From contig CAYJVM010000001.1 of assembly GCA_964373665.1 (NCBI GenBank), positions 9,546 to 73,545 on the forward strand: DNA of 64,000 nt, in the 5' to 3' direction. Shown piece after piece: positions 6,613-53,096 of this stretch. The translations under genes were made by a program, and so were the position numbers. Source of the DNA: an uncultured archaeon (GTDB taxonomy: Archaea > Aenigmatarchaeota > Aenigmatarchaeia > CG10238-14 > SCSR01). The stretch's first letter is position 1, and each line of letters begins with the position of its first letter. Under the pieces are notes generated by a model. It worked only from the letters and a program-made list of their open reading frames with translations. It was not told where the DNA came from and made no database searches.

Positions 6613-7170
6613 ATGTTTTGGAAATCAAGCAAGTGCAAAAATTGCGACACGAACATCAAGTTCGAATGGAAATGGTGCCCCAGTTGCGGGTTTAGCCTGA
6701 AAAAGCGCGATATTTTTGTCGATGTGGAAAGGGACATTCACCGCATGGAAAAGGAGTTGGACATGAAAATACCAACGTTTATGCTAAAACCAGGAATGCA
6801 TGCAAAGGGAATAGGCATCACAATTTCTTCCAACAACAACTCCCCGCCAAAAATTCAAGTCACGCCATTAGGAAACAGGCAGCATAAGCATATTCATGAA
6901 AAGCATGTGCACAGGCCTGTCAGGATAGCCAAGTACACCGAAGAACCCGAGGCTAGGATAGAGAAGAAAAACAATGTGCAGATAATCAACCTGAACCTTC
7001 CGGACGTCAAGAGCGTTGACGACATTGAGATAAGAAAGTTCTCGCAGAGCATAGAGGTCAGGGCGTTCGCAGGCGATAAGGGCTATTTCAAGCTCATACC
7101 GATTCCGTCAAACTCTACTATCAACAATGAGTTCAAAGACGGGGTTCTGAAGATTCAAGTCGCGAAATAG
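6613..7170 (+). CDS. Zn-ribbon protein with a C-terminal Hsp20/alpha-crystallin-like domain
   Basis: N-terminal CKNCDT...CPSCG ribbon. The C-terminal end EIRKFSQSIEVRAFAGDKGYFKLIPIPSNSTINNEFKDGVLKIQVAK resembles a small heat-shock protein C-terminus. Confidence 0.45.
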   Translation: MFWKSSKCKNCDTNIKFEWKWCPSCGFSLKKRDIFVDVERDIHRMEKELDMKIPTFMLKPGMHAKGIGITISSNNNSPPKIQVTPLGNRQHKHIHEKHVHRPVRIAKYTEEPEARIEKKNNVQIINLNLPDVKSVDDIEIRKFSQSIEVRAFAGDKGYFKLIPIPSNSTINNEFKDGVLKIQVAK

Positions 7171-7171
7171 G

Positions 7172-7870
7172 TTAGAATATCAGGTACACGAAAAGACCGA
7201 ACGTTATTATGGTGCCGAGATCCGCAAGAGGAGTCATCAATGGCATCACGAGGTTATTGGGATCCTCTTTTCTTCTATAGACATAAAAGACGGCCGACGA
7301 CGCCAGCAGCACGACGATGCTTGTCATCACGGCTGAAGTTAAGACAGAGACCGCTGTAACTTTCACTACAGTGCCAATAGTCAGAGGAAATCCTTTGAGA
7401 TAGGCTACAGCGGACGAAATCAGGCCAATGTAAAGCGAGGACATGATAGAAACCTGGGCTATAGTCATAATTATTTTTCTGACGTCCTTGTTTTGCCACC
7501 ATTTTCCGATAACATTCTTGGTGAACGCCAGGGTGGAGAGCCTCGATACCATTATCATGCCGTAATCTCCCATCATGTCATTCAATGCCGGAAACAGGAT
7601 CAGCAATGGCAGGAAGAATAAAAACTTGTCTTGCATTGCCTGCAGGCTTATGCCAGCTAGTGTTCCTATGACGAGAGCTACAACAAGGGCGAAAAGGCTC
7701 TCCCGCAATATCACTGATGCTATGTGTGACCTCGGGCCGTATTCCTTCATGTAGAAGATTGTTCTTTTCGAGATGCTTTGCTTGGCTGCTATTTTGTGTA
7801 TGATCGGGTGGTGCTCGTGCCTGCGTATTTTTCTCAACTGTCTCCTGATGGAAGCACTTGGCATTTTCAT
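7172..7870 (-). CDS. MgtE/SLC41-like divalent-cation transporter membrane-domain protein (half-size, member 2 of a pair)
   Basis: Multi-TM protein containing DPNNLVMPLMTPLADLG (DP..sgP.ittl.D..G pattern of MgtE TM domains). ATGA overlap with the upstream paralogue. Confidence 0.5.
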   Translation of the reverse strand: MKMPSASIRRQLRKIRRHEHHPIIHKIAAKQSISKRTIFYMKEYGPRSHIASVILRESLFALVVALVIGTLAGISLQAMQDKFLFFLPLLILFPALNDMMGDYGMIMVSRLSTLAFTKNVIGKWWQNKDVRKIIMTIAQVSIMSSLYIGLISSAVAYLKGFPLTIGTVVKVTAVSVLTSAVMTSIVVLLASSAVFYVYRRKEDPNNLVMPLMTPLADLGTIITFGLFVYLIF

Positions 7871-8409
7871 ATGATCACTACCGCAACCAACAGCGAGATT
7901 ATTGTAACAATGTCGCCCATCGTCGAGACGTACGGACCCATGATGTTGTTAGGGTCAAAGCCTTTCTTGAAAAGCCAGAAAGTCGCGATCACAGTCAAAG
8001 GCACCTCTGCGGCGTTTGCCATAACTGCTGCAAGAAGCGAAATAAGGATTATTTTCGGGTAGTTGACGTTGAAGACCGCATAGTTGACGGCGTATGCAAC
8101 CGCTCCGAAAAGCAGGCTCAGTATAACCGTCAGCAGGAATGCGGCCTTGATGTTTTCTCTAGTCACTCTACTGAAGATATTCCGCGGTTTGAGAACGCCC
8201 AAATGCAGGCCTGCACTCAGCCTTGCCGCAAGGCTCCCGCTGATGGTGCCCCTCATGTCCAAAAGGCCGGGAAGCAAAATGAAAAATCCTGGGATCAGGT
8301 AGATCTTGTCGAGATAAACCGCAAGCAATGCGCCTGCCGCGATGCCCCCGGTAACTGAAATTAGTTGCGTGTAGAAGATTTCCTTGAAATCCTTCGTGAA
8401 GAACCCCAT
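7867..8409 (-). CDS. MgtE/SLC41-like divalent-cation transporter membrane-domain protein (member 1 of a pair)
   Basis: PGLLDMRGTISGSLAARLS and DPNNIMGPYVSTMGDIVTII motifs. 5 predicted TM helices. Confidence 0.5.
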   Translation of the reverse strand: MGFFTKDFKEIFYTQLISVTGGIAAGALLAVYLDKIYLIPGFFILLPGLLDMRGTISGSLAARLSAGLHLGVLKPRNIFSRVTRENIKAAFLLTVILSLLFGAVAYAVNYAVFNVNYPKIILISLLAAVMANAAEVPLTVIATFWLFKKGFDPNNIMGPYVSTMGDIVTIISLLVAVVII

Positions 8410-10223: not shown

Positions 10224-11300
10224 CTACATATTTTCCTCTATCATGACCAGTTCATTCATCTTCTCTGTAGACGAGCCGTCGAAGGCAAACTTTGCAAATT
10301 CCGACCTAAGGCCCAATGCAAGGTGAGCAGGCAAACTGTCGTTGACGTTGTTGATGCACGACATGATCACCGCAATCTTGCTTTTCTTTGCTAGTTCAAT
10401 CAGTTCTACAAGGTCGTTAATCGTGCCAACTTCATGTGGTGTGACAACTATCCCGCTAGTCGACTTGAGGTCTATGCCTGTCTCCAGTCTATCCAAATCG
10501 TTCCCGTAAAGCCCGTTGCCCGCAACTATTCTCGACGGTATCCTCCGTGTCAATGTCGCCGGAAGAATATAATCTTCATCATGGAACGGATCCTCCACAT
10601 AGTCAACCGGATAATCCTTCAATATGTCCTGGACGAACAGCAGCTGCTCCTGAGTGCCCAAGTTTTCTTTTTCATAAACGTAAACCCCGTCCATCTTATC
10701 GTATCCGACGCCAAACCTCACCCCTATGGTCAAGTTCAATTGCGTGAATTTTGACAGAAGCTTTAATGCAGAGTGGACCGTCATGTGCTTCCCAGCTTCC
10801 AGATTGTGGTACACTGAGTTGAGCTTCATCAGCCCTTTAGTAAAGCCTCTTTTAGTAGGATGCATCATCATCTCGTCTACATCTATTCGTTGCCGCCTCT
10901 TCGTAAGCATTACTCCCATAGGCACGGGAATGTCAGACCTACGTTTCCCCACCATTTCGTATATCTCAACATTCTGTGACTTGGCAAGCGCCTTTAGCAG
11001 CGTAGCCGAAAGCGCATATGCCATACCTCCCCCGATCTTCTCGAACACTTTAGTAGGATCTATCTCCTTTATTGCATCATCAACTTCGTCCATGCTGTCG
11101 AACTGACTCTTTACAAAGTACCTCTTAACCTCGCCGAATTTCTCAATATAGCCGGTTGTATGTAAGTGATTGAATTTGTCCGATTTGAACGTAGGGACAG
11201 GCGTGCGGACTAGAAAATCTTGAGCTTTGACGCTGACTTCGACGGTCCTCCTAAAGTCCGCCGTAAAAATTTCCCTTATCGAGATGTCCTCTACTTTCAT
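10224..11300 (-). CDS. Enolase-superfamily protein with a degenerate active site (enolase-like paralogue)
   Basis: N-terminus MKVEDISIREIF..RRTVEVSV follows the enolase N-terminal pattern, and the C-terminal ...GTINDLVELIELAKKSKIAVIMSCINNVNDSLPAHLALGL... follows the pattern of the enolase TIM-barrel end. The canonical SGASTG and HRSGETED signatures are replaced. Confidence 0.5.
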   Translation of the reverse strand: MKVEDISIREIFTADFRRTVEVSVKAQDFLVRTPVPTFKSDKFNHLHTTGYIEKFGEVKRYFVKSQFDSMDEVDDAIKEIDPTKVFEKIGGGMAYALSATLLKALAKSQNVEIYEMVGKRRSDIPVPMGVMLTKRRQRIDVDEMMMHPTKRGFTKGLMKLNSVYHNLEAGKHMTVHSALKLLSKFTQLNLTIGVRFGVGYDKMDGVYVYEKENLGTQEQLLFVQDILKDYPVDYVEDPFHDEDYILPATLTRRIPSRIVAGNGLYGNDLDRLETGIDLKSTSGIVVTPHEVGTINDLVELIELAKKSKIAVIMSCINNVNDSLPAHLALGLRSEFAKFAFDGSSTEKMNELVMIEENM

Positions 11301-11369
11301 CTAACCTTAATTTCGGCTGGAAGTAGTTAAACTTAAATATCTTAACGGCAGTGGCTTTTAAGGATTCGC

Positions 11370-11981
11370 ATGGAAGTACAACATGAAAGAAAGGAGCCTT
11401 GGATATTAAGAACACTCCGTATTTTTCCTTCTGTTGACAATTACCTGGACAATCTGAAATATATTGATGAGTTGACTGGACTTTATCGGCAGAGATATTT
11501 CAATGATATTCTTCGAACCCAGTATGCTCAGACAGCCTCGTACAGAGAAGACAACCATAGGAGGCATAGGATAATTGTTCCAGACCTGTCTTTATTGTTC
11601 GGCGATTTGGATAACTTTCACCTCTTTAACAGGATGTATGGGCAATTGAGAGGAAATGAAGCGCTGCACAATGTCGGCGACACTATAAGACGCAACAAAC
11701 GTCCAGGCGACATTGCAGGAAGATTGGGTGGCGAGGAAATGGGTATTTTGCTGCCTAATACAGAACATCAAGAAGCACTTGTGGCCGCAGAAAAGTTTAG
11801 GCATCTAGTGGAGGCAGAATCAGAAGGTCTTGTAACAATGAGTTTCGGCGCAGCAACATTCACTCCAAGAAATCCTAATATGGCATCCTCCTTAGAACTT
11901 CACAACACTGCTGAGAATGCAATGAAATTAGCCAAAGTAACTGGTGGAAATAGGGTATGCGGAATGTACGAATTACTCTAA
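11370..11981 (+). CDS. Stand-alone GGDEF-domain protein (diguanylate-cyclase-like; GGEEM variant with RxxD I-site)
   Basis: DELTGLYRQRYF (D.LTGL.NRR.F); LLFGDLDNFHLFNRMYGQLRGNEAL (DiDhFK.iND.yGH.GD); RPGDIAGRLGGEEMGILLP (RxxD + GG[DE]EF); VTMSFGAA; AENAMKLAKVTGGNRV (AD.ALY.AK..GRNRV). Confidence 0.7.
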   Translation: MEVQHERKEPWILRTLRIFPSVDNYLDNLKYIDELTGLYRQRYFNDILRTQYAQTASYREDNHRRHRIIVPDLSLLFGDLDNFHLFNRMYGQLRGNEALHNVGDTIRRNKRPGDIAGRLGGEEMGILLPNTEHQEALVAAEKFRHLVEAESEGLVTMSFGAATFTPRNPNMASSLELHNTAENAMKLAKVTGGNRVCGMYELL

Positions 11982-12259
11982 TCCTTCTTCTCCTTCCAGA
12001 CAGCATTAGTTCCTCTAATAAGCAATCCCATCTCAGCGATCTCCTTCTCAGTATAAACCCTTTTAGTGACCTTGAACCCTTCAGGCGGCTTTAACACAGC
12101 TTCCGTTGGGCAGACAGGCACGCAACTCCAGTCATCGACGCACTTGTCTATAATCAGCTCTGCAATGTTGTCCTTATCCATCTCCAAAGCCTTGTAAGGA
12201 CAAACGGCAACGCATGCGCCGCAGCCTATGCACTTCTCCTGCACGATAATCGGCGGCAT
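11978..12259 (-). CDS. 4Fe-4S ferredoxin
   Basis: CIGCGACVAVCP and C...C..CVPVCP cluster motifs, 93 aa. Confidence 0.7.
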   Translation of the reverse strand: MPPIIVQEKCIGCGACVAVCPYKALEMDKDNIAELIIDKCVDDWSCVPVCPTEAVLKPPEGFKVTKRVYTEKEIAEMGLLIRGTNAVWKEKKD

Positions 12260-12323
12260 ATCACTTAATAACTATGTTATGTTTATATATTTTCGAACCG
12301 GTTCTAGCATAAGAGAAATTACC

Positions 12324-12599
12324 ATGTCTAGGGAATTCACAGTAGTAATAGAGCAAGGGGAAGATGGCTATTTTGTTTCAGAAGTAGTTGAACTGCCCGG
12401 ATGCCATACACAAGGCAAAACTATAGATGAGCTACTGGAAAGAACTAGAGAGGCCATTTCACTATACCTTGTGGTCGAGAAGGACATTGAACCTCAAACA
12501 TTCAATCATCCTGATGAAAAAATCGACAGAGGACTTTTGAATAAAATAATCAAGCATGATTTGGGGATGAGAAGAGAAGAATTTATGAGGTATTTGTAG
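12324..12599 (+). CDS. HicB-like antitoxin (UPF0150 / RNase-H-fold antitoxin family)
   Basis: Start moved to ATG 12324 because the track ORF start overlaps the ferredoxin gene. FTVVIEQGEDGYFVSEVVELPGCHTQGKTIDELLERTREAISLYL matches the HicB N-domain pattern. Confidence 0.55.
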   Translation: MSREFTVVIEQGEDGYFVSEVVELPGCHTQGKTIDELLERTREAISLYLVVEKDIEPQTFNHPDEKIDRGLLNKIIKHDLGMRREEFMRYL

Positions 12600-13886: not shown

Positions 13887-15149
13887 TTAGAGCGTGAAAA
13901 TTCTGTCGTTCGCCACAGGCGCTATAGCATCATAGCCCTTCTCCTTTAATTCCAGAGCGAATTCCTCAGTGCTGTCTCCGTGGACACAGAATACCTTTTC
14001 AGGATTTAGCTTGCTGATGAATCCAAGCAGATCCTTCCTTCCTAAATGGCTGGAAAAGTCCAGCCTCCTAATATTCATCTTGACCTCTACGTCAATCTCA
14101 TCATGCACAAACCTTCCGGTCTCTAGAAGGAGCTTTCCCGAAGTTCCTTCCACCTGAAAGCCGCTGAGAACAAGGCTGCTATTCCGCCTGTCGAAAAGCT
14201 TGCTTATGTACCAGACTATGGGCCCGCCCGTCAGCATGCCGCTTGTGGAAAGGATTACCCCCGGCTTTTTTATCGCATTCTTCCTCATCCTGTGGTCGTT
14301 CACGTACTCAACCTTCTCCAAAGCCTTGTCCAGACTCTTCGGATCCTTTAGCAGCTTTTTCTGCTCGTTTATAATCGTTATAGCTTTCCTTGCCATACCG
14401 TCCACGTATACGGGATAATCAATCCCATAACTGTCCAGCACAAGCAACAGTTCGTCTATGCGTCCGACGGCGAATCCGGATAGCAATGCCATGCCGTCAT
14501 TGCTCAGAGTGTCCCTCACTATCCTGACAAGCTCCTTCTCCTGCGACGCCCTGTCGGGATGCTCCCTGTTGCAGTATGTGGTTTCTGTTATCAACGTGTC
14601 CACTCTCGGCAGGTCTGTGTCGGCGCCTTTCAGGAGCCTTGTGTCGTCCAGCTTGTAATCGCCAGTGTAAAGAATAGTCTTGCTTCCGGTGTCGATAAAT
14701 GGCATGCTGGAGCCGGGGATGTGTCCGGCGTCGAACAGTATGATTTTGCTCTTGTGCAGCTTTGCAGGCACGCGGAACTTGGTCGGCACGAAATTGGCCA
14801 GAGTCTTTTCCACGTTCTTCTTTGTGAACGGCAGATCATAGCCCTCCTCCTTGCTTATCTTTATCGAGTCCATCCACAGCAATCTGCACAGTTCCCTTGT
14901 AGCGTATCCTGCATACGTCGGGACGCTGTTGCCCTTGGCGGAAAATATGGATGCTCCGCCGCTGTGGTCAAGGTGGGCATGCGACAGCAGTAAAGCGTCT
15001 ATCTTGCCCTCAACAGGTATGGGAAACTTGGGAGGCATGTCCTGTATTTTCGTGCCATAGTCAAGAAGTATCTTTTCTATTCCAGTATCTACCAACGCGC
15101 CGCTCGAGCCCACAGAGCTCATGGCGCCTAGGAAGCTGAGCTGAACCAT
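13887..15149 (-). CDS. Metallo-beta-lactamase/beta-CASP family ribonuclease (aCPSF2 / RNase J-like)
   Basis: HAHLDHSG zinc-binding motif, DAGHIPGS, and C-terminal HGD/H motifs of the beta-CASP family (FCVHGDS). Size is 420 aa. Confidence 0.75.
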   Translation of the reverse strand: MVQLSFLGAMSSVGSSGALVDTGIEKILLDYGTKIQDMPPKFPIPVEGKIDALLLSHAHLDHSGGASIFSAKGNSVPTYAGYATRELCRLLWMDSIKISKEEGYDLPFTKKNVEKTLANFVPTKFRVPAKLHKSKIILFDAGHIPGSSMPFIDTGSKTILYTGDYKLDDTRLLKGADTDLPRVDTLITETTYCNREHPDRASQEKELVRIVRDTLSNDGMALLSGFAVGRIDELLLVLDSYGIDYPVYVDGMARKAITIINEQKKLLKDPKSLDKALEKVEYVNDHRMRKNAIKKPGVILSTSGMLTGGPIVWYISKLFDRRNSSLVLSGFQVEGTSGKLLLETGRFVHDEIDVEVKMNIRRLDFSSHLGRKDLLGFISKLNPEKVFCVHGDSTEEFALELKEKGYDAIAPVANDRIFTL

Positions 15150-15261
15150 TATGTTAATTTAATCGACAACACTATTATAATTAAGTTATGTTTAACAAAA
15201 ACTCATACTAAAATGACTGGTGAATATGGCCAAATACTGAGTCTCAACTAAGATCGGAGTA

Positions 15262-15345
15262 CGTTAAGAAGTTAAGGAAAATCGAAGAAGAGGGCACTTT
15301 CTGAAGAAGAGTTTGAAAGAAAGCTTAAAGTGAAAATAAGATAGA
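15262..15345 (+). pseudogene. Remnant of a relB-like antitoxin gene (3' ~80 bp, frameshifted), followed by the cassette-end motif
   Basis: gttaagaagttaaggaaaatcgaagaagagggcac-tttctgaagaagagtttgaaagaaagcttaaagtgaaa is ~85% identical to 16389-16466 of the intact relB gene, with a 2-nt indel. Confidence 0.6.
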
Positions 15346-15467
15346 CAGCTTTTCCCGTCCCACTATTTTATTAATCAATTGTACACAGTATTACACATCT
15401 TTATTGGAATTATATATTCCCAAAATCTTTATATATCTACCAAATTCATATAATTTTTGGTGATAGT

Positions 15468-15725
15468 ATGAAATATGGTGTTGTAGAAAGAGAGATAGAT
15501 CCTCAAGGTAGAGTTTTGCTGCCTAAGGGGTGGAGAGCTGAAATAAAAACTAAAAAAGTCATTTTGCTGCAGACGCCTGAGTATGTTAAAATTTTACCGA
15601 AGAAAAAAGTAGATCTAACCAAATATTCCAATTCGATAAAAGTTGATTTGAAAGCGCCTCTTACTGATTGGCATGCAGTTAAGGCAGAACTTCTAGCAAA
15701 AGCATACCTTCGTGATAAGAAATGA
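15468..15725 (+). CDS. vapB: VapB-type antitoxin (AbrB/SpoVT swapped-hairpin domain)
   Basis: EREIDPQGRVLLPKGWR motif. 4-nt ATGA overlap with the PIN gene. Confidence 0.7.
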   Translation: MKYGVVEREIDPQGRVLLPKGWRAEIKTKKVILLQTPEYVKILPKKKVDLTKYSNSIKVDLKAPLTDWHAVKAELLAKAYLRDKK

Positions 15726-16141
15726 TATTCTTAGATTCGAATGTTATAATTTACGACCAAATAAAAACAGAAAGAAAGTTAGACGAAAAGACACAGGAAA
15801 TTAAGAAAGCATCGCATCAAATTATGGAACGTATATCTAAGGGAGAAAAAGTAGTAACTACAGTTGTTCATATTTCAGAAACTGCAAATATCTTGGAAGA
15901 AATTGTTGGTATAGAAAACTCTTATAATTCCGTAGTAGATTTATTAAAATCTGAAAATATCCGTGTAGAGAATGTTGAAAAAAGTCTGTATACAGCTAGC
16001 CTAGATGAAGCTAAAGAATTTAAGATCGGTGTTAATGACGGGTTAGCTGTAGTCGTTATGAAAAATTCAGGAATCAATGAAATTTATAGCTTTGATGAGC
16101 ATTTTGACAGAATTGAGGGAATAAAAAGAATAACCAAGTGA
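15722..16141 (+). CDS. vapC: VapC PIN-domain toxin
   Basis: MIFLDSNVIIY...SFDEHFDRI (PIN acidic residues D5, E, D), 139 aa. Confidence 0.75.
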   Translation: MIFLDSNVIIYDQIKTERKLDEKTQEIKKASHQIMERISKGEKVVTTVVHISETANILEEIVGIENSYNSVVDLLKSENIRVENVEKSLYTASLDEAKEFKIGVNDGLAVVVMKNSGINEIYSFDEHFDRIEGIKRITK

Positions 16142-16234
16142 ATGGACAGCTTTTCCTATCCCCTATATTTGTAGGGATGCATACAGCAGAAACGTTTATA
16201 TACGAGATATATATTAAGTATATTAGGTGTATAT

Positions 16235-16471
16235 ATGCCAAAAGCCATGATACAAATATCAGATAAAGCTAACAGAGTGCTGAATATTTTGAAGGCAAAA
16301 TATGGTTTGAAGGATAAATCCCATGCTATCAATAAAATGGCTGAGGAATACAGTCAAACACTGCTAGAGCCTCAATTAAGGCCAGACTATATTAAAAAGT
16401 TAAGAAAAATCGAAGAAGAGGGCACGATTTCTGAAGAAGACTTTGAAAGAAGGCTCAAAGTGAAAGTATAA
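16235..16471 (+). CDS. relB: RelB/ParD-like antitoxin
   Basis: 78-aa ORF directly upstream of the RelE-like gene with a 1-nt (TAATG) overlap. Confidence 0.6.
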   Translation: MPKAMIQISDKANRVLNILKAKYGLKDKSHAINKMAEEYSQTLLEPQLRPDYIKKLRKIEEEGTISEEDFERRLKVKV

Positions 16472-16737
16472 TGTTCTCCGCGGAATTTTCCAAGGAACTT
16501 ACCAGAAAATTGGAGAAATCGCAGGCGAGGAACAAAGTTATGTTTGACGCCATCATCAACAAGATTAGGGAAATTAAGGAGAACCCCGAACATTACAAAC
16601 CACTAAGATATGACATGAAAGGCTTTAGAAGAGCGCACATCATGAAATCATTCGTTCTTATTTTCAGAATTGATTACGCGAATAGTAAAATAATCTTTGA
16701 AGACTTTGGGCATCATGACGACATTTACCAGCGTTAA
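16471..16737 (+). CDS. relE: RelE/ParE-family toxin
   Basis: KIREIKENPEHYKPLRYDMKGFRRAHIMKSFVLIFRIDYANSKIIFEDFGHHDDIY matches the RelE pattern (..G.rR.R.G.YRiiY.id.....i..igHR...Y). Confidence 0.7.
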   Translation: MFSAEFSKELTRKLEKSQARNKVMFDAIINKIREIKENPEHYKPLRYDMKGFRRAHIMKSFVLIFRIDYANSKIIFEDFGHHDDIYQR

Positions 16738-37523: not shown

Positions 37524-37608
37524 GCGCCGATAGTCTAGTCTGGTAGGACATCAAACTTTGTGTAAGCCTTCCAAGCTGAACGCATGGGTTCAAATCCCGT
37601 TCGGCGCA
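37524..37608 (+). tRNA. tRNA-Gly (anticodon TCC) with a ~12-nt non-canonical intron near positions 26-30
   Basis: Acceptor GCGCCGA/TCGGCGC. D-arm GTCT-AGTCTGGTA-GGAC. T-arm ATGGG-TTCAAAT-CCCGT. Anticodon arm TAAGC-CUUCCAA-GCTGA (the typical Gly-UCC loop). 12 extra nt (TCAAACTTTGTG) lie between the D-arm and anticodon stem. Confidence 0.6.
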
Positions 37609-37670
37609 CTAGAACTTTAAAGAAATAGAGAAAAATTAAAGAAAAACTCAAAAATTAGCGATGGATTGTC

Positions 37671-47579: not shown

Positions 47580-47747
47580 ATGTTACAAGATCGCCCTTTA
47601 ACATGTGATAAATGTGGTCAATCAAGCAATTATCCCAAAAATGAAGCATATAAAGACGGTGTGACATGCAAAAATTGCAATAAGGAGATAGATACGACTA
47701 AACTAAAAGTTCTCGACGTGGTAAAAGCATTTAGAGAAGAAGACTAG
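47580..47747 (+). CDS. Small Zn-ribbon protein (55 aa)
   Basis: MLQDRPLTCDKCGQ...VTCKNCNKEI; below the track threshold; abuts the transposase gene. Confidence 0.3.
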   Translation: MLQDRPLTCDKCGQSSNYPKNEAYKDGVTCKNCNKEIDTTKLKVLDVVKAFREED

Positions 47748-49315
47748 GTATGAACAATCTCATAAAGAGATTTCAAGAATAGCTTAAAGGTAACTACCCT
47801 TTTTGCAGCGTCCTTTATTCCAAGTTCTAACATTACAAGTAGGTTGATTAATGTCCATAAATTGTATAGTGCAACCGAAAACAGAAAATAGAATAATCTT
47901 ATTGAATAATTGTTAGATGTTGTCTTAACTAAACCTTCTCTTTTCTTAACACGGTATCCAGTTTCTATTCCCCATCTCTTACCATACATTCTAGGCAGGT
48001 TTTCAATCAAATCCACATCGTGACTGTTAATTGGAATGTTGGTTGCTATCTTCATCAGACCTTTAGTTCCTTCAACCAGAACAAGGTTCTTTATGATAGC
48101 GTTGCCTCTCTTATAGTTATGAATAACAAATGGTGGTGATACAGTTTCTATAACTTTCTTAACGCCTCTGTCATCAGGCAGTGGTACCACATAATTCAAT
48201 TTCATTGACTGCAACAGGTTGAATATTTTCTCGTTAGCGAATCCTCTATCCATGTAAATCTTGTTGATCTTGATTTTCTTCTGAGTATATTCTAACAACT
48301 CTTTAACTAAATCAGCTTCTCTATCGAAGATGAAAACAGGGAAAGCACATAACGTAAACCTAGTACCGTTTTCTACAATATCAAGAGTAATGTACTTGAA
48401 GTATCTGATAGTACCGTGATCATATTTGCTGTTGACGATGTTGGGATGGTTAGGATCTCCATAATAATGTTGGAAAGTATAGTCAACTGCAACATCAAAC
48501 TTTCTCTTATTAAATTTTCCAGACCTTTTAGCTATCCTAAACAACTCATCCGAAACTTTGGTAAATATGGCCTTGGTAGATTTAGGGTCGTGCTTCTTCA
48601 GATGATAAAGAATTGTGTTGGAAGCTGGTGAAATGGAGCCATTCTTCTTGTAGGACAATGCTCCACCATTCGTGAAACTACCTTCCAATGCCGAATGTAC
48701 TAGAACATCTAATATAGTGTTTTTAGTGTATTTTGCGTTATGCTTTATGTCAAGTTTTATCTTAGGATATATTATCTGTCTTAATCTTTTGGAGAGTTCG
48801 CTTAATTTCTGCTCCTTTTGATATTGTACATTGGTTTCTTTAACTGGCTCTATTTTTTCTTCTATTTTCGGAATTTCTGTGTCGAAACTCAGATCGAATT
48901 TCTCGGATATTTCCCTAATTTTTTTGACTATCAGTTCTATAATTTCCTTTTCTTCCTGAATGAGCTTGTGAACAAGAAAATAGGAAAAGCTCCTTTGGTC
49001 AGGTACCATTAATGTGTTGGTTTCGTCTTTGTCAAAACCTAGATTAAGTGCGTCGTTTTCGTTTGACTTTAGATAATCCGATAGATTTTTGGAGGATTTA
49101 ATTCCTTTCAATTGTTTGTAAATCAAGGCTCTTATCAACGATAATTTGGAGAATCTTATCATTTCTTCATCTGGTATTATGTGACCTATCTCCAGTTTAG
49201 ATAGAAATTCAGATAACTTGATAGAGCTAACATTCTTTAAACTAACAAAATTCTTATATACAGTCTTTTCAATTTTACTAATGGGGATTGTTGCTGTCAT
49301 AGGTAACATCTCCAC
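47744..49315 (-). CDS. DDE transposase, IS4-superfamily (IS1634/ISH3-like size)
   Basis: 523 aa; C-terminal KRWGIETGYRVKKRE (Y..RW.IE....K signature of IS4-type DDE transposases). Confidence 0.7.
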   Translation of the reverse strand: MEMLPMTATIPISKIEKTVYKNFVSLKNVSSIKLSEFLSKLEIGHIIPDEEMIRFSKLSLIRALIYKQLKGIKSSKNLSDYLKSNENDALNLGFDKDETNTLMVPDQRSFSYFLVHKLIQEEKEIIELIVKKIREISEKFDLSFDTEIPKIEEKIEPVKETNVQYQKEQKLSELSKRLRQIIYPKIKLDIKHNAKYTKNTILDVLVHSALEGSFTNGGALSYKKNGSISPASNTILYHLKKHDPKSTKAIFTKVSDELFRIAKRSGKFNKRKFDVAVDYTFQHYYGDPNHPNIVNSKYDHGTIRYFKYITLDIVENGTRFTLCAFPVFIFDREADLVKELLEYTQKKIKINKIYMDRGFANEKIFNLLQSMKLNYVVPLPDDRGVKKVIETVSPPFVIHNYKRGNAIIKNLVLVEGTKGLMKIATNIPINSHDVDLIENLPRMYGKRWGIETGYRVKKREGLVKTTSNNYSIRLFYFLFSVALYNLWTLINLLVMLELGIKDAAKRVVTFKLFLKSLYEIVHT

Positions 49316-49496
49316 CAGAGGAGTCAGTTCACAAGGCTAGCTCCTCTGGCTTACTTATCCAATGGGATAAGATTATTAGTCCTTATCCATAGTCTTATCC
49401 ATAGGTATAATATATATGTACTAGTATTTAAGCTTATCGGTATGGCTATCGGTAGAAAGTATTTAAATATAATAAACGAATTACTTTTAGATTAAT

Positions 49497-49700
49497 ATGG
49501 AAGACGAAATATCCAAGAAAATTGTCAGTACCATTAAATCTTCAGACGAACCAATCGAAACAAAAGAGATAGAACAAAAAATCAAAGGTGTGTCTAGAGA
49601 TAAGATATTGTACAGATTGTTTAATTTGAGAGGTGAAGGAGTAATTAAAGGAAAACAAGTAGGCTCAGGTAAAGGTACTTGGATATGGTGGAAAAAGTAA
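49497..49700 (+). CDS. Small winged-helix protein upstream of the R-M gene (candidate controller/regulator)
   Basis: IETKEIEQKIKGVSRDKILYRLFNLRGEGVIKGKQ. Confidence 0.45.
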   Translation: MEDEISKKIVSTIKSSDEPIETKEIEQKIKGVSRDKILYRLFNLRGEGVIKGKQVGSGKGTWIWWKK

Positions 49701-49718
49701 ACTGCATCAGGAGATAAT

Positions 49719-52700
49719 ATGGTAGAAAAACCAGACTTTGTAGATTCCGTCTTGAACTCTTTTAAGAATATATTAGGAGAGGTAGAGAAAGGCTCATCTG
49801 AACACGATATCAGATACAAGTTTGTCAAGTATTTTCTCGAGGATGTACTAGGTTACGAACCAAGACTGATCAAATGGGAAAAGAAGAGAGCTGACTTGAC
49901 CATCATAGACGATAACAATTTTTCTGTAATAATGATAGAAACGAAAAGACCCCAAGAGGACATAGAGAAAGCATCGATAGAAGAACAGGCTTTCAAGTAT
50001 GAGGAGGGAACTACAAAATACATAGGACTGACTAATTTTTCTCGGTTCAAATTATGGGAAACTAAGGATTCTAAAAGAGAACTGAAGGCGGACATAGACT
50101 TTTCGAGACTAATAGAAAGAAAAAGTGAACTATCGACTGAGGATAAAGGTAATATACTATTTCTGAATAATCTCACCAAAGATCAAATTTTTGATGCAAG
50201 AAAATACGAGAAATTCGACGAAACATATGCTAAAATCGATATAACGAAAGACGTTGGATTTAGAAAATTGTTGGAGAAGCTTAATTTCATTGCCAATAAT
50301 CTTTTGCTGGGATATACGCTGAAAGCATTTGGAGAATACAAAGAAGGTTATGGTAGATACCTGGAAGAATTGAAGCAAGTCGAGAAAGTGTCTAATAATT
50401 CGCATAAAGAAATTAATCATGGTGTGGCCAAGTTCAAGCAAAAGCTAGAGGAAAAATATGAAAAATACAGGACATTTTCTGGCTATTATTTATGGAAGGA
50501 GTATTCGGGAAAAGAGAACATTACAGATGATGAGATAAAGGAAGTTTTCTGCAAAGAAACAATTTACGTATTCCTTAACAAGTTGCTCTTCCTAAGAATA
50601 TGCGAAGATAAGGGATTGCTTGAGAAGAATATTTCAAACGGTGGAATCGAAGAGTTAAGAGCTGTCCTCAAAAAGAGATTTGAAAAAGATATCTTAAACA
50701 AAGAAATACTAAAGCTGGCTTTTGAGAGTGCGAAAGGTCTGTACTCCCATTTTTACGAGACGGGTATCTTGGATTGGTTTAGAACTGGAGATGGTGAACT
50801 AAACGAGTTGTTGAACAGAGTGCTGTGGATAATGAATTCGTTCAACTTTAGACATGTTGACAGGGATATACTAGGCAACCTTTATGAAAAATACCTTCCC
50901 AGTAACGAAAGAAAAAGATTGGGGGAATTTTACACACCAGTTGAGGTTATAGACTACATTTTAACGTCTGTTGGATATACTTACAGCTATGATATTGAAA
51001 CTAAAGATTTGTTAGATCCAGCGTGTGGTTCAGGCGGTTTCTTAGTTAGAGGTACAAGAAGATTAATTAGCAGGTATTTGATGAAATTTGGTAAATCTGA
51101 CAAGAAAGAATTGAGAGATCCTAAAAATTGGAAGGAGATTGTTAGTAGATTGTCACCTGACGAAGCAAAAATAATTCTTGAATCTATTAAAGAACATATT
51201 TATGGTCTTGATGTCAATCCTTTTGCCTGCCACATTGCTGAGATGAACCTTCTTTTTCAAGTAGTAGATTTGTATCAGAAAGCTAGAGAAAAATATAGAG
51301 ATTACAAGTTAGGAAGATTCAAAATATATAGAACAGATTCTTTGGAAAAACCTAGTCAAAAACAGATTTTTGATTACACCCATTCGACATTCTTGGAAGA
51401 GCAGGAAGAGATCGATAAGATTAAGAGCAAGAAGTTTGATTTTGTTACGGGTAACCCACCATATATCCGCGTACAAATGTTGGATGAGAGAGTGAAGAAG
51501 TATATTACCGAGAATTACAAAACGGCTTATAGCAACTTTGATTTATATGTTATTTTTATTGAGCGTGGTCTGAATTGGCTTAAGGATAATGGGAATTTTG
51601 GATACATTACGTCCAATCAATTCATAAATAGAGAATATGGTAAAAAATTAAGAAAATATATTTTGGAAAATTCCAAAATCATAAGCATAATAGATTTCGG
51701 TGATTCTGGAGTATTCAAGGATGCTACAAATTATCCAATGATACTGATTTTTAAAAGGGGCACACAAAAATCTAATAGGTTCAAATTTATAAAAGTAAAG
51801 CAATCGAAAGATAATTTAATTGGAGATATTTTTTCCAAGTTTAAGGAAAAAGAATATAATGGTCCTTATTTTGATATTTTTGAAATTGAACAGAATAAAC
51901 TTTCCGAAGAAACATGGCAACTATTTTCAGGTACAATAATTAAAATTCTAGAAAAGCTAGAAAAGAATATTAAACTGAAGGATCTGTGTAGAGAAAATGG
52001 TGTAGTAGTTGGTGTACAAACAGGATTAAATGATGTTTATGTTGTAAATAAAGACACTATTAACAAATACAAATTAGAAAGCAGTTTAATCAAAAAGTTG
52101 TTAGACAGTAGAGATGTAAGACGATGGAAAATAAATCATAGTGGACTGTATTTAATATACCCTTATTACGAAAGGGGTGGAAAAACAATCTTGATTGATG
52201 AAAAGACATTGAAGTCTGATTTTTCGAACGTTTATTCATATTTACTTGAAAATAAAAATAAACTTATAAAACGATGGGGTGTGAAAAACTGTTGGTATGA
52301 ATTGCCAACCGCAAGAACTCTAAATTTCTTTGAACAGAAAAAAATTTTAACTCCGACCATAAGTAATTTTAACAACTTTGCCTTAGATACAAATGGACTT
52401 TTCTTTGCGAAAGGAGCAGGAGGAAGCTATGGAATTATATTAAAAAATGATAGCAAAGATAACTATCTTTACATTTTGGGTCTGATAAATTCCAGATTGT
52501 TAGAATTCTACTTAAAGCAATTTCTTCCTGTAAAAGCCGGTGGATGGTATGAATATATAGCAGCATATCTGGAAAAACTCCCTATCAAACTTCCAGAAAC
52601 TGCAGAGGAAAAGAAAATTACCAATCAGATAATCAAGAAAGTAGACGAAATTTTAGAATTGCATAAATCTGGAATTGTGGATATAGACACTGCACTTGAA

Positions 52701-53096
52701 AATGTAGAAACAGAGAAACTATGCAATTTACCAAAAATAACATTCAATATAAAAGATGATGCTAAATTTGAGAAAGTTAAAACAGAAGGAAACAAAATTT
52801 ACATCAATTCTCAGGATTTCATAGAGGTCAAAGACAAGAAACTTAAGGACTTTGTTGAAATGTATCTCAACTTTAACAGTGAAAAGTTATCTAAAGATAT
52901 CAAAAGTATGCTTATCAACATTCCTATTCCAAAATCCGATGAAATTCTAAAAGATGTAATAGCTAAAGGCGGTATCGATTATTCACAGATTAAAGAAGAA
53001 ATTAGAAAACTAGAGCAGGAAATTAACGATTTGGTTTATCAAATTTATGGAATAACTAAAGAAGAACAACATGTTATAGATAATAGTATTAAATAA
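49719..53096 (+). CDS. Type IIG restriction-modification enzyme (fused PD-(D/E)xK endonuclease, gamma-class N6-adenine methyltransferase and target-recognition domain; Eco57I/MmeI-like)
   Basis: N-terminal D..E.K (ADLTIIDD..VIMIETKRP); MTase motif I LDPACGSGGFLV and motif IV FDFVTGNPPYIRV; 1125 aa. Confidence 0.8.
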   Translation: MVEKPDFVDSVLNSFKNILGEVEKGSSEHDIRYKFVKYFLEDVLGYEPRLIKWEKKRADLTIIDDNNFSVIMIETKRPQEDIEKASIEEQAFKYEEGTTKYIGLTNFSRFKLWETKDSKRELKADIDFSRLIERKSELSTEDKGNILFLNNLTKDQIFDARKYEKFDETYAKIDITKDVGFRKLLEKLNFIANNLLLGYTLKAFGEYKEGYGRYLEELKQVEKVSNNSHKEINHGVAKFKQKLEEKYEKYRTFSGYYLWKEYSGKENITDDEIKEVFCKETIYVFLNKLLFLRICEDKGLLEKNISNGGIEELRAVLKKRFEKDILNKEILKLAFESAKGLYSHFYETGILDWFRTGDGELNELLNRVLWIMNSFNFRHVDRDILGNLYEKYLPSNERKRLGEFYTPVEVIDYILTSVGYTYSYDIETKDLLDPACGSGGFLVRGTRRLISRYLMKFGKSDKKELRDPKNWKEIVSRLSPDEAKIILESIKEHIYGLDVNPFACHIAEMNLLFQVVDLYQKAREKYRDYKLGRFKIYRTDSLEKPSQKQIFDYTHSTFLEEQEEIDKIKSKKFDFVTGNPPYIRVQMLDERVKKYITENYKTAYSNFDLYVIFIERGLNWLKDNGNFGYITSNQFINREYGKKLRKYILENSKIISIIDFGDSGVFKDATNYPMILIFKRGTQKSNRFKFIKVKQSKDNLIGDIFSKFKEKEYNGPYFDIFEIEQNKLSEETWQLFSGTIIKILEKLEKNIKLKDLCRENGVVVGVQTGLNDVYVVNKDTINKYKLESSLIKKLLDSRDVRRWKINHSGLYLIYPYYERGGKTILIDEKTLKSDFSNVYSYLLENKNKLIKRWGVKNCWYELPTARTLNFFEQKKILTPTISNFNNFALDTNGLFFAKGAGGSYGIILKNDSKDNYLYILGLINSRLLEFYLKQFLPVKAGGWYEYIAAYLEKLPIKLPETAEEKKITNQIIKKVDEILELHKSGIVDIDTALENVETEKLCNLPKITFNIKDDAKFEKVKTEGNKIYINSQDFIEVKDKKLKDFVEMYLNFNSEKLSKDIKSMLINIPIPKSDEILKDVIAKGGIDYSQIKEEIRKLEQEINDLVYQIYGITKEEQHVIDNSIK

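Follow-up and report, generated by a model that had tools for sequence, protein, structure and literature searches.

A 64,000-nucleotide stretch of contig CAYJVM010000001.1 from an uncultured archaeon (hereafter the window) carries the gene for a stand-alone GGDEF protein of 203 amino acids (P0001; 11370..11981, plus strand), and an ortholog is present in a second species. The gene truly belongs to the chromosome of a DPANN archaeon (Aenigmarchaeota/Aenigmatarchaeota) and is inherited at one locus in two genomes that have diverged until their synonymous sites are saturated. As judged from residue mapping, the catalytic machinery and the inhibitory site (I-site) of bacterial diguanylate cyclases are kept and both determinants of guanine selectivity are lost in both orthologs, which makes this compact protein a testable candidate for an archaeal cyclic-dinucleotide synthase and for a natural GGDEF specificity variant. 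To the reading that it is an active, I-site-regulated, sensor-less dinucleotide cyclase whose choice of base is relaxed or altered we assign roughly even probability.

Identity of the GGDEF protein

The open reading frame (ORF) begins with an ATG at 11370 and ends with a TAA at 11979-11981, with all 203 codons intact, in exact agreement with the start, stop and strand given in an earlier note made from the sequence alone. The GGDEF domain proposed in that note is recovered by profile searches as a significant full-length match: the Pfam GGDEF profile PF00990 is aligned over positions 2-161 of 161 (E=4e-25; 88.9 bits against a gathering cut-off of 23.8) and TIGR00254 scores 95.1 bits (E=3.6e-27; cut-off 37.4), so that by both cut-offs the protein is a member of the GGDEF superfamily. 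It also matches 46 solved GGDEF chains, the best of which are a Marinobacter GGDEF (3ign, 2.4e-17) and WspR (3i5a, 1.2e-16). All of these matches lie far above chance.

The AlphaFold2 (AF2) monomer model (mean pLDDT 86.8, mostly above 90 in the core formed by residues 31-203) is predicted to adopt a GGDEF fold superposable on solved GGDEF domains. In Foldseek searches the model retrieves WspR, 3ign, PadC and PleD at E~1e-15 with TM-scores of 0.70-0.77, within a range of 1e-15 to 1e-11 that includes DgcB and the Geobacter Hypr GGDEF (6d9m, E=1e-11); sequence identity in the structural alignments is 26-33%.

The motifs read in the protein are DELTGL (33-38), D79-L-D81, R111-P-G-D114, G120-G-E-E-M124, VTMSFGAA (155-162) and K189...G192-G-N-R-V196. 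The motif list of the earlier note is thus largely borne out, with two corrections: the spacing of its first motif is off by one (D.LTGL...R.F instead of D.LTGL..R.F), and the C-terminal motif reads AENAMKLAK, not AD..KLAK. Its statement that essentially every GGDEF landmark is present was too generous, as about ten normally near-invariant positions deviate. The note also passed over two features treated below, namely the replacement of both PleD D344 and PleD R300 by residues that differ between the orthologs, and a conserved insertion of 11 residues.

Archaeal residence of the gene

The window is archaeal beyond doubt. Around the GGDEF ORF lie genes for the primase small subunit, GINS, L44e, S27e, RtcA and a beta-CASP nuclease, and the window further contains an archaeal ribosomal protein operon (L3-L4-L23-L2-S19-L22-S3-L29-SUI1-RNase P p29-S17-L14-L24-S4e-L5) followed by genes for NurA and an LSM protein, which bears out the archaeal flanks claimed in the earlier note. 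Contigs encoding the exact protein number 4-5 and reach 174 kb in length. In contigs of 61-215 kb from independent samples and assemblies (4-7 contigs each), the GGDEF gene is located mid-contig with archaeal genes on both sides.

The ortholog, MBI2084437.1 (P0002; 205 aa, 56-58% identical), belongs to a Candidatus Aenigmarchaeota archaeon, the metagenome-assembled genome (MAG) NC_groundwater_223 (GCA_016181005.1; contig JACPAE010000002.1, 215 kb; locus L001). Both loci have the gene order MgtE-MgtE-RtcA-transmembrane protein-enolase-like protein, GGDEF, ferredoxin and onward to the beta-CASP nuclease, and in both the stop codons of the convergent GGDEF and ferredoxin genes overlap by 4 nt. 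Neighbouring orthologs are 52-92% identical between the two loci, the GGDEF protein (56%) falling at the fast end beside the enolase-like protein and a racemase. The two GGDEF genes are 63% identical at the nucleotide level with a nonsynonymous divergence (dN) of 0.325, the only meaningful rate here because synonymous sites are saturated. The combination of an intact frame, this dN and saturated synonymous divergence (dS) indicates that purifying selection has kept the frame over a long time.

These data bear directly on the possibility that the gene is an artefact, either a bacterial fragment that was mis-assembled or mis-binned or the decaying pseudogene of a recent transfer. Contamination is a known concern when domains of bacterial type turn up in unfinished genomes of archaea (Galperin et al. 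2018, PMC5847659), and the GC content at third codon positions (GC3) of the gene is lower than that of its neighbors. However, the gene sits mid-contig between archaeal flanks in independent samples and assemblies, two species share its position, the 4-nt stop overlap and a conserved promoter, the frames are intact at a dN of 0.325 against saturated dS, and its overall GC content (0.423) is close to the window mean (0.415). Contamination or mis-binning was rejected on the ground of the same synteny in independent assemblies, and an ortholog of 56-58% identity in the same syntenic slot of an independent Aenigmarchaeota MAG excludes it, in line with the argument against contamination made in the earlier note. 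An artefact is effectively refuted and we regard it as hardly tenable.

Catalytic and base-selecting residues

Residues were mapped to PleD numbering using a phmmer alignment of 253 neighbouring domains, a sample biased to the query, and the mapping was cross-checked by the constant 44-residue offset that separates the selectivity positions of PleD, PadC and GacA from each other. Catalytic residues are kept in both orthologs. The active-site strand and helix DLDNFHLFNRMYGQLRGNEAL (aa 79-99; 11604..11666, plus strand), delimited by this mapping, the ortholog alignment and published work (PMC6456294, PMC7288161), contains the metal ligands D327/D329 as D79/D81 and the sugar-face N335 as N87. R366 corresponds to R118. 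The signature hairpin G120-G-E-E-M124 (11727..11741, plus strand; GGEEI in the ortholog) retains G368-G369-E370-E371 as residues 120-123, including the metal-binding E122 and the general base E123; in GGDEF cyclases E370 is a metal ligand, and E371 serves as general base across the dimer (PMC6456294). In the C-terminal helix AENAMKLAKVTGGNRV (11910..11957, plus strand) the phosphate-binding K442 is kept as K189.

The fifth signature residue is Met in P0001 and Ile in the ortholog instead of Phe or Tyr. Among the 253 neighbour domains this position is occupied by F in 210, L in 22, M in 10 and I in 8, and the M/I/L variants (40/253) include some otherwise canonical GGDEFs; the activity heuristic of Hallberg accepts only F or Y here (PMC6456294).

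Both positions that select guanine are replaced according to the mapping. At the Watson-Crick face, D344, which is Asp in 226 of the 253 neighbour domains, becomes N96 in P0001 and His in the ortholog. This Asp enforces the choice of GTP and is Ser in Hypr GGDEFs (PMC6456294, PMC7288161), and GacA becomes a pure diguanylate cyclase through the substitution S348D (PMC6456294). The cross-dimer position lies in the hairpin DELTGLYRQRYF (aa 33-44; 11466..11501, plus strand), assigned from phmmer column statistics and the literature (PMC6456294), where R300 becomes Q41 in P0001 and Leu in the ortholog (R in 107/145 neighbours). R300 is the cross-dimer cation-pi partner of guanine and is conserved in 94% of predicted cyclases; cyclases with Tyr, Ser, Ala or Gln in its place produce mainly cyclic GMP-AMP (cGAMP) (PMC6456294). 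With both residues replaced, a strict diguanylate cyclase seems doubtful even if the protein is catalytically active, and the enzyme may not make classical cyclic di-GMP (c-di-GMP).

Other changes are shared by the two orthologs. K332, D336 and H340 are replaced identically, by H84, R88 and Q92; we group with them N299, which is R40 in P0001, R or K across the orthologs and Asn in 128/146 neighbours, as changes fixed in both. Because they recur in both species, K332H, D336R, H340Q and N299R/K are fixed rather than signs of decay. The positions that differ between the orthologs are D344 (N/H), R300 (Q/L), F372 (M/I) and R446 (G/R).

Since Asn matches Asp in length, it would preserve the "Goldilocks" distance to the GGEEx motif. 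Natural precedents for a functional Asn may be seen in five bacterial or metagenomic neighbours with intact motifs ([G/A]G[D/E]E[F/I/L]) in which N344 occurs together with Tyr or Phe at 300 (P0041, P0065, P0093, P0109 and P0113). In 144 neighbour domains of the query-biased sample, a residue other than Arg at 300 is associated with a residue other than Asp at 344 (Fisher p=0.002), and GGDEFs with N344 and Tyr/Phe300 may form an uncharacterised specificity class parallel to Hypr (Tyr+Ser). No characterised D344N or Asn-type GGDEF was found in a literature search that did not include Hallberg et al. 2016, a possible lister of Asn variants.

The same residues bear on a more conventional explanation, in which the protein is an ordinary GTP-only diguanylate cyclase making c-di-GMP, with the rest of the circuit encoded elsewhere in the genome. 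It would account for the full-length GGDEF profile match, for the retention of GGEE, DxD, N335 and K442, and for the Asp and Arg with which the I-site reads guanine; Asn could still accept hydrogen bonds from guanine N1-H/N2-H, and R40 or R42 might replace R300. However, it has to accommodate the loss of both D344 and R300 despite their prevalence, the demonstration in GacA that the Asp drives GTP specificity (S348D, PMC6456294), and the His of the ortholog, a poor mimic of Asp. We consider a GTP-only enzyme quite improbable.

Inhibitory site, basic insertion and predicted N-terminal helices

The primary I-site R359xxD362 is present as R111-P-G-D114 (11700..11711, plus strand), five residues upstream of GGEEM, and as RVND in the ortholog; among the 253 neighbour domains its Arg is found in 182 and its Asp in 181. 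An equivalent of R390 of the PleD secondary I-site is assigned to K142-F-R144 (11793..11801, plus strand) by its offset from P129, which we take to be PleD P377 from general knowledge of the PleD numbering; K142 is R142 in the ortholog, so that a basic residue is kept in both. Retention of a guanine-reading I-site suggests that at least one ligand contains guanine, as c-di-GMP or cGAMP.

The second conserved element is the clade-specific basic insertion SYREDNHRRHRIIV (aa 57-70; 11538..11579, plus strand) in the alpha1-beta1 loop, whose counterpart in the ortholog, SYRANNHRRARILV, is almost identical. The spacing from G37 of LTGL to D79 of DxD is 42 residues, compared to 31 in 125 of 146 neighbouring GGDEF domains, and both orthologs have a basic insertion of 11 residues, of the form SYRxxNHRRxRI, between helix alpha1 and strand beta1. 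In the ortholog alignment the insertion is conserved above most of the protein and, together with the adjacent I-site, ranks among the best-conserved segments; its pLDDT in the AF2 model is ~58. By GGDEF topology the loop would lie on the I-site side of the domain, and the NHRRHR stretch possibly contributes to ligand binding there.

The first 30 residues (11370..11459, plus strand), delimited by the AF2 model, Foldseek and the ortholog alignment, are predicted with low confidence to form two short helices (11-18 and 20-29) that lead into the domain. No Pfam domain is matched before residue 31 and no sensor domain is found in the 203-aa protein, in keeping with its description as sensor-less in the earlier note. 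Residues E9-P10, I12-L13, L16, P20, V22, Y25 and L29-K30 are common to the ortholog, and the best structural match of the model is a GCN4-zipper-WspR GGDEF fusion (3i5c, 199 columns). The extension is presumed to be a minimal dimerisation stalk, not a sensor domain.

Proposed mechanism and its main rival

In the proposed mechanism, two copies of the protein would pair through the short N-terminal helices, and each subunit would bind one Mg-NTP via D79, D81, E122, K189 and main-chain amides. Acting across the dimer, E123 of either subunit would take the proton from the 3'-OH of the nucleotide held by its partner, as in all GGDEF cyclases, and the homodimer would thereby condense two Mg-NTPs to a 3',3'-cyclic dinucleotide. 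With D344 replaced by N/H and R300 by Q/L, base selection is probably relaxed or shifted, so that the product need not be c-di-GMP alone and could be c-di-GMP, 3'3'-cGAMP or cyclic di-AMP (c-di-AMP). Either this product or a different dinucleotide containing guanine would bind the I-site (R111xxD114 with K142/R144) and shut the enzyme off. In a protein that lacks a sensor domain, control would operate mainly on transcription, via a promoter shared with the divergent enolase-like gene, in addition to product feedback.

A bolder version holds that this is the first Archaea-native GGDEF cyclic-dinucleotide synthase, and one that has given up GTP specificity: with Asn/His at the Watson-Crick face and Gln/Leu at the cross-dimer position it would accept ATP and make c-di-AMP or 3'3'-cGAMP. 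Pairing of Asn with adenine is a classical bidentate interaction. We rate this version as unlikely.

Several observations weigh against an active cyclase. Among the Pfam annotations of the called genes (~3,400-56,500) and the larger end ORFs of the window, there is no EAL, HD-GYP, PilZ, MshEN or DAC domain, and a scan of the entire window with Rfam gathering thresholds detects no c-di-GMP or cGAMP riboswitch. At 88.9 bits, the Pfam score strikes us, as an impression formed without comparison, as low for an active cyclase domain. About ten near-invariant positions are changed (N299R, R300Q, K332H, D336R, H340Q, D344N, F372M, R446G, AD to AE, and Y to K in the last helix), of which R446 is G193 in P0001, Arg in the ortholog and Gly in 17 neighbours. 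The dimerisation stalk is very short and of low confidence in the AF2 model (pLDDT 45-58 for the N-terminal helices). A GC3 of 0.39 (0.36 in the ortholog), as compared with 0.5-0.65 in core neighbours, suggests low expression. The differences between the orthologs at the selectivity positions (N versus H, Q versus L) look more like relaxed constraint than tuned specificity, and a non-catalytic domain would look alike. Finally, no archaeon has yet been found to contain c-di-GMP (PMC10249747).

The main rival is an inactive GGDEF protein kept as a nucleotide or cyclic-dinucleotide receptor or adaptor that acts through the I-site, the insertion or protein contacts. It would explain the replacement of near-invariant positions (K332H, D336R, H340Q, N299R/K, D344N/H, R300Q/L, F372M/I), the divergence of the base-contacting positions between the orthologs, the strong conservation of the I-site with the adjacent insertion, and the lack of turnover enzymes among the annotated genes of the window. 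The GdpS model NF047872 is also matched, weakly but genuinely (5.6e-6); staphylococcal GdpS keeps GGEEF yet lacks cyclase activity. The profile of GdpP-type GGDEFs gives no match (E=0.14). On the other hand, receptor-type GGDEFs such as PelD and PopA normally lose the catalytic signature and the metal ligands, whereas here the metal ligands, the GG turn, E371, N335, R366 and K442 are all kept in both orthologs despite saturated dS. A receptor would moreover need a source of ligand, and none is known in archaea (PMC10249747). We regard the receptor as a serious contender that is nevertheless somewhat unlikely. The choice between an acquired cyclase and a GGDEF recruited to another role, as posed in the earlier note, is still the right framing.

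Distribution and origin

When 1.84 billion representatives of 50% clusters were scanned exhaustively with HMMER, 172,069 GGDEF matches were obtained, among which only the query's own cluster exceeds 50% identity. Three matches reach 1e-30 or better, namely the own cluster and two multi-GGDEF proteins of 31-35% identity, and the best single-domain matches are 40-45% identical at ~80-90 bits. The nearest relatives that carry a name are all bacterial and scattered (Cytophagaceae, Spirochaetales, Egicoccus, Saccharothrix and an unclassified "bacterium"). A pattern scan across GTDB with a single genome for each species gave the known ortholog as the only further member of the clade, JGI metagenomes contained none and yielded only canonical bacterial REC-coiled-coil-GGDEF proteins (38-40%), and viruses in IMG/VR contained none. 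One metagenomic protein of 1274 aa (P0006) is matched by the query in seven separate stretches and carries several tandem GGDEF-like domains, some of them with degenerate motifs (GRDEF, NGE..GGEF), an architecture that is out of the ordinary.

A third genome of a more distant relative, GCA_964606175.1 (CAZSGA010000003.1; locus L020), was reached via homologs of the enolase-like protein, which is 39% identical there, next to a near-identical ferredoxin. Between these two genes (6895-8000) it has a 90-aa ORF and an AdoMet decarboxylase, and the GGDEF gene is absent from the slot. The content of the interval from the ferredoxin gene to the enolase-like gene thus differs between the window and L020, which makes it a site of variable cargo.

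A recent transfer with a recognisable donor was rejected, as nothing outside the clade exceeds 45% identity and the named neighbours are scattered bacteria. The simplest history would be that the ancestor of a small lineage of groundwater Aenigmarchaeota captured the gene once, long ago, from a bacterium into this variable slot, and that purifying selection has maintained it since. Compositional foreignness as a scar of transfer is not favoured, since the GC content equals the window mean and low GC3 is common to both orthologs and the racemase. Given the saturated divergence, we read the low GC3 as weak codon selection, which suggests low expression. Within the genome, GC3 is split between core genes (0.5-0.65) and the GGDEF and Asp/Glu racemase genes, at 0.27-0.39 in both species.

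Presumed promoter region and neighbouring genes

The GGDEF gene has no operon partner, being divergent from the enolase-like gene and convergent with the ferredoxin gene. The left border of the slot is the enolase-family gene (10224..11300, minus strand; 358 aa; Enolase_C 3e-13, Enolase_N 7e-9), with orthologs in L001 and L020. Its product has the M. jannaschii enolase 2pa6 as best PDB match (1e-22), and is short and highly divergent, with four closer relatives (39-52%) among 5.8 billion proteins and the rest at 23-25%. The right border is a 2x[4Fe-4S] ferredoxin gene (11978..12259, minus strand; Fer4 E=5e-14), whose stop overlaps that of the GGDEF gene by the 4 nt mentioned above; the protein is 92.5% identical in L001.

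The divergent intergenic region (11301..11369, 69 bp) was delimited by comparison with the ortholog locus and has a central TATA-like element TTAAATAT at 11334-11341, ~30 nt from both start codons and flanked by GTTAA...TTAAC. The spacer corresponds to 7933-8000 of L001; its core (11311-11362) is identical there at 46 of 52 positions, compared with 63% for the GGDEF gene, and the spacer is conserved above either flanking coding sequence. From the usual position of an archaeal TATA element, we presume a shared or bidirectional promoter giving leaderless or nearly leaderless transcripts; the GTTAA...TTAAC-flanked spacer possibly carries a regulator site.

A role in a defence system was considered and rejected, as neither the GGDEF protein nor its eight neighbours match any PADLOC defence model. 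Elsewhere in the window, a HicB-like antitoxin is encoded at 12282-12599, directly downstream of the ferredoxin gene. A low-GC island at 15100-16600 (0.31-0.35 versus ~0.45 around it) contains PIN and ParE/YafQ-type toxin genes and small ORFs; the matching stretch of the ortholog genome has other small ORFs, and the island is probably a mobile toxin-antitoxin island. At 47744-53096 a DDE-type transposase gene (518-523 aa) lies immediately upstream of that for a 1125-aa MmeI/Eco57I-like type IIG restriction-modification enzyme, likely a mobile defence insertion. The overlapping ORFs at 7172-8409 (minus strand; 232 and 180 aa), each with one MgtE transmembrane domain, are a split or duplicated MgtE-like divalent-cation transporter, and the pair is conserved in the ortholog genome. 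The single tRNA of the window, tRNA-His(GTG) at 37524-37609 (plus strand), measures 86 nt by ARAGORN and is longer than we expect; Rfam aligns model positions 1-71 over 85 nt, and there might be an intron or an extension.

Comparison with known GGDEF systems

The protein resembles the canonical cyclases PleD of Caulobacter and WspR of Pseudomonas (1w25, 2v0n, 3bre, 3i5a) in its fold, full-length domain and DxLTGL hairpin, in DxD, N335, R366, GGEE and K442, in an RxxD five residues before the signature, and in a basic equivalent of R390. It differs from them by the lack of a REC or other input domain, by its archaeal host, by the substitutions D344 to N/H, R300 to Q/L, K332H, D336R, H340Q and F372M/I, and by the basic insertion of 11 residues. 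The ortholog MBI2084437.1 has the same locus, insertion and H332/R336/Q340, and differs by H344, L300, GGEEI and the retention of R446.

With the Hypr GGDEFs (GacA of Geobacter, Bd0367 of Bdellovibrio; 5VS9/6d9m) it shares the departure of both selectivity positions from Asp/Arg and a non-Arg residue at the cross-dimer position, Gln being among the residues of cGAMP-producing Hypr enzymes (PMC6456294). In Hypr proteins the short Ser needs the shorter Asp, hence GGDE[F/Y] only (PMC6456294); unlike them, the archaeal proteins have N/H rather than Ser/Thr at the Watson-Crick face and GGEE[M/I] rather than exclusively GGDE[F/Y]. By these residues it is not a Hypr member, although it might work like one. 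The PelD and PopA receptors share with it an intact RxxD I-site and many departures from consensus, and differ from it in that GGEE, D79 and D81 are retained in both archaeal orthologs. It is like GdpS of Staphylococcus in its weak model match and unlike the GdpP GGDEF, whose profile it does not match.

Galperin et al. 2018 (PMC5847659) described other rare, uncharacterised GGDEFs of bacterial type in Archaea, in Methanocella arvoryzae (CAJ37382) and, as a REC-(inactive)GGDEF protein, in "Ca. Micrarchaeum acidiphilum". Both are single-genome observations whose authenticity was left open (PMC5847659). Compared by description, the protein reported here differs from these two by being stand-alone, by its intact catalytic motif, and by a residence established through two-species synteny and the empty slot of a third genome.

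Conclusions

Archaeal GGDEFs are regarded as near-absent, as the earlier note had stated, and as unconfirmed (PMC5847659, PMC10086821, PMC10249747, PMC7288161), and reviews hold that c-di-GMP and the enzymes of its metabolism are essentially absent from Archaea, the few GGDEF matches being perhaps contamination (PMC5847659, PMC10086821, PMC10249747). Our literature search found no prior description linking Aenigmarchaeota with GGDEF. The domain call itself is not new, as the ortholog is auto-annotated as GGDEF in GenBank. The new elements are the demonstration that an archaeal lineage has maintained the gene vertically, the comparison with the empty slot, and the loss of both guanine-selecting residues together with the conserved insertion. 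The find is narrow, comprising two species and no partners found within the window, and is a good lead rather than a discovery.

Across two species, orthology, synteny, purifying selection and a conserved promoter region of archaeal type establish the archaeal residence of the gene, which provides a clean example of a DPANN lineage domesticating a bacterial enzyme of second-messenger signalling. If the ATP-accepting version of the proposed mechanism were true, a bacterial catalytic scaffold would have been plugged into an archaeal signalling network of the c-di-AMP type in a reduced DPANN genome, and the bacterial GGDEFs with Asn344 and Tyr/Phe300 would define a second non-canonical specificity class beside Hypr. 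The protein offers a real, clean and testable exception to the rule that Archaea have no GGDEF signalling, and may be a new variant in GGDEF specificity.

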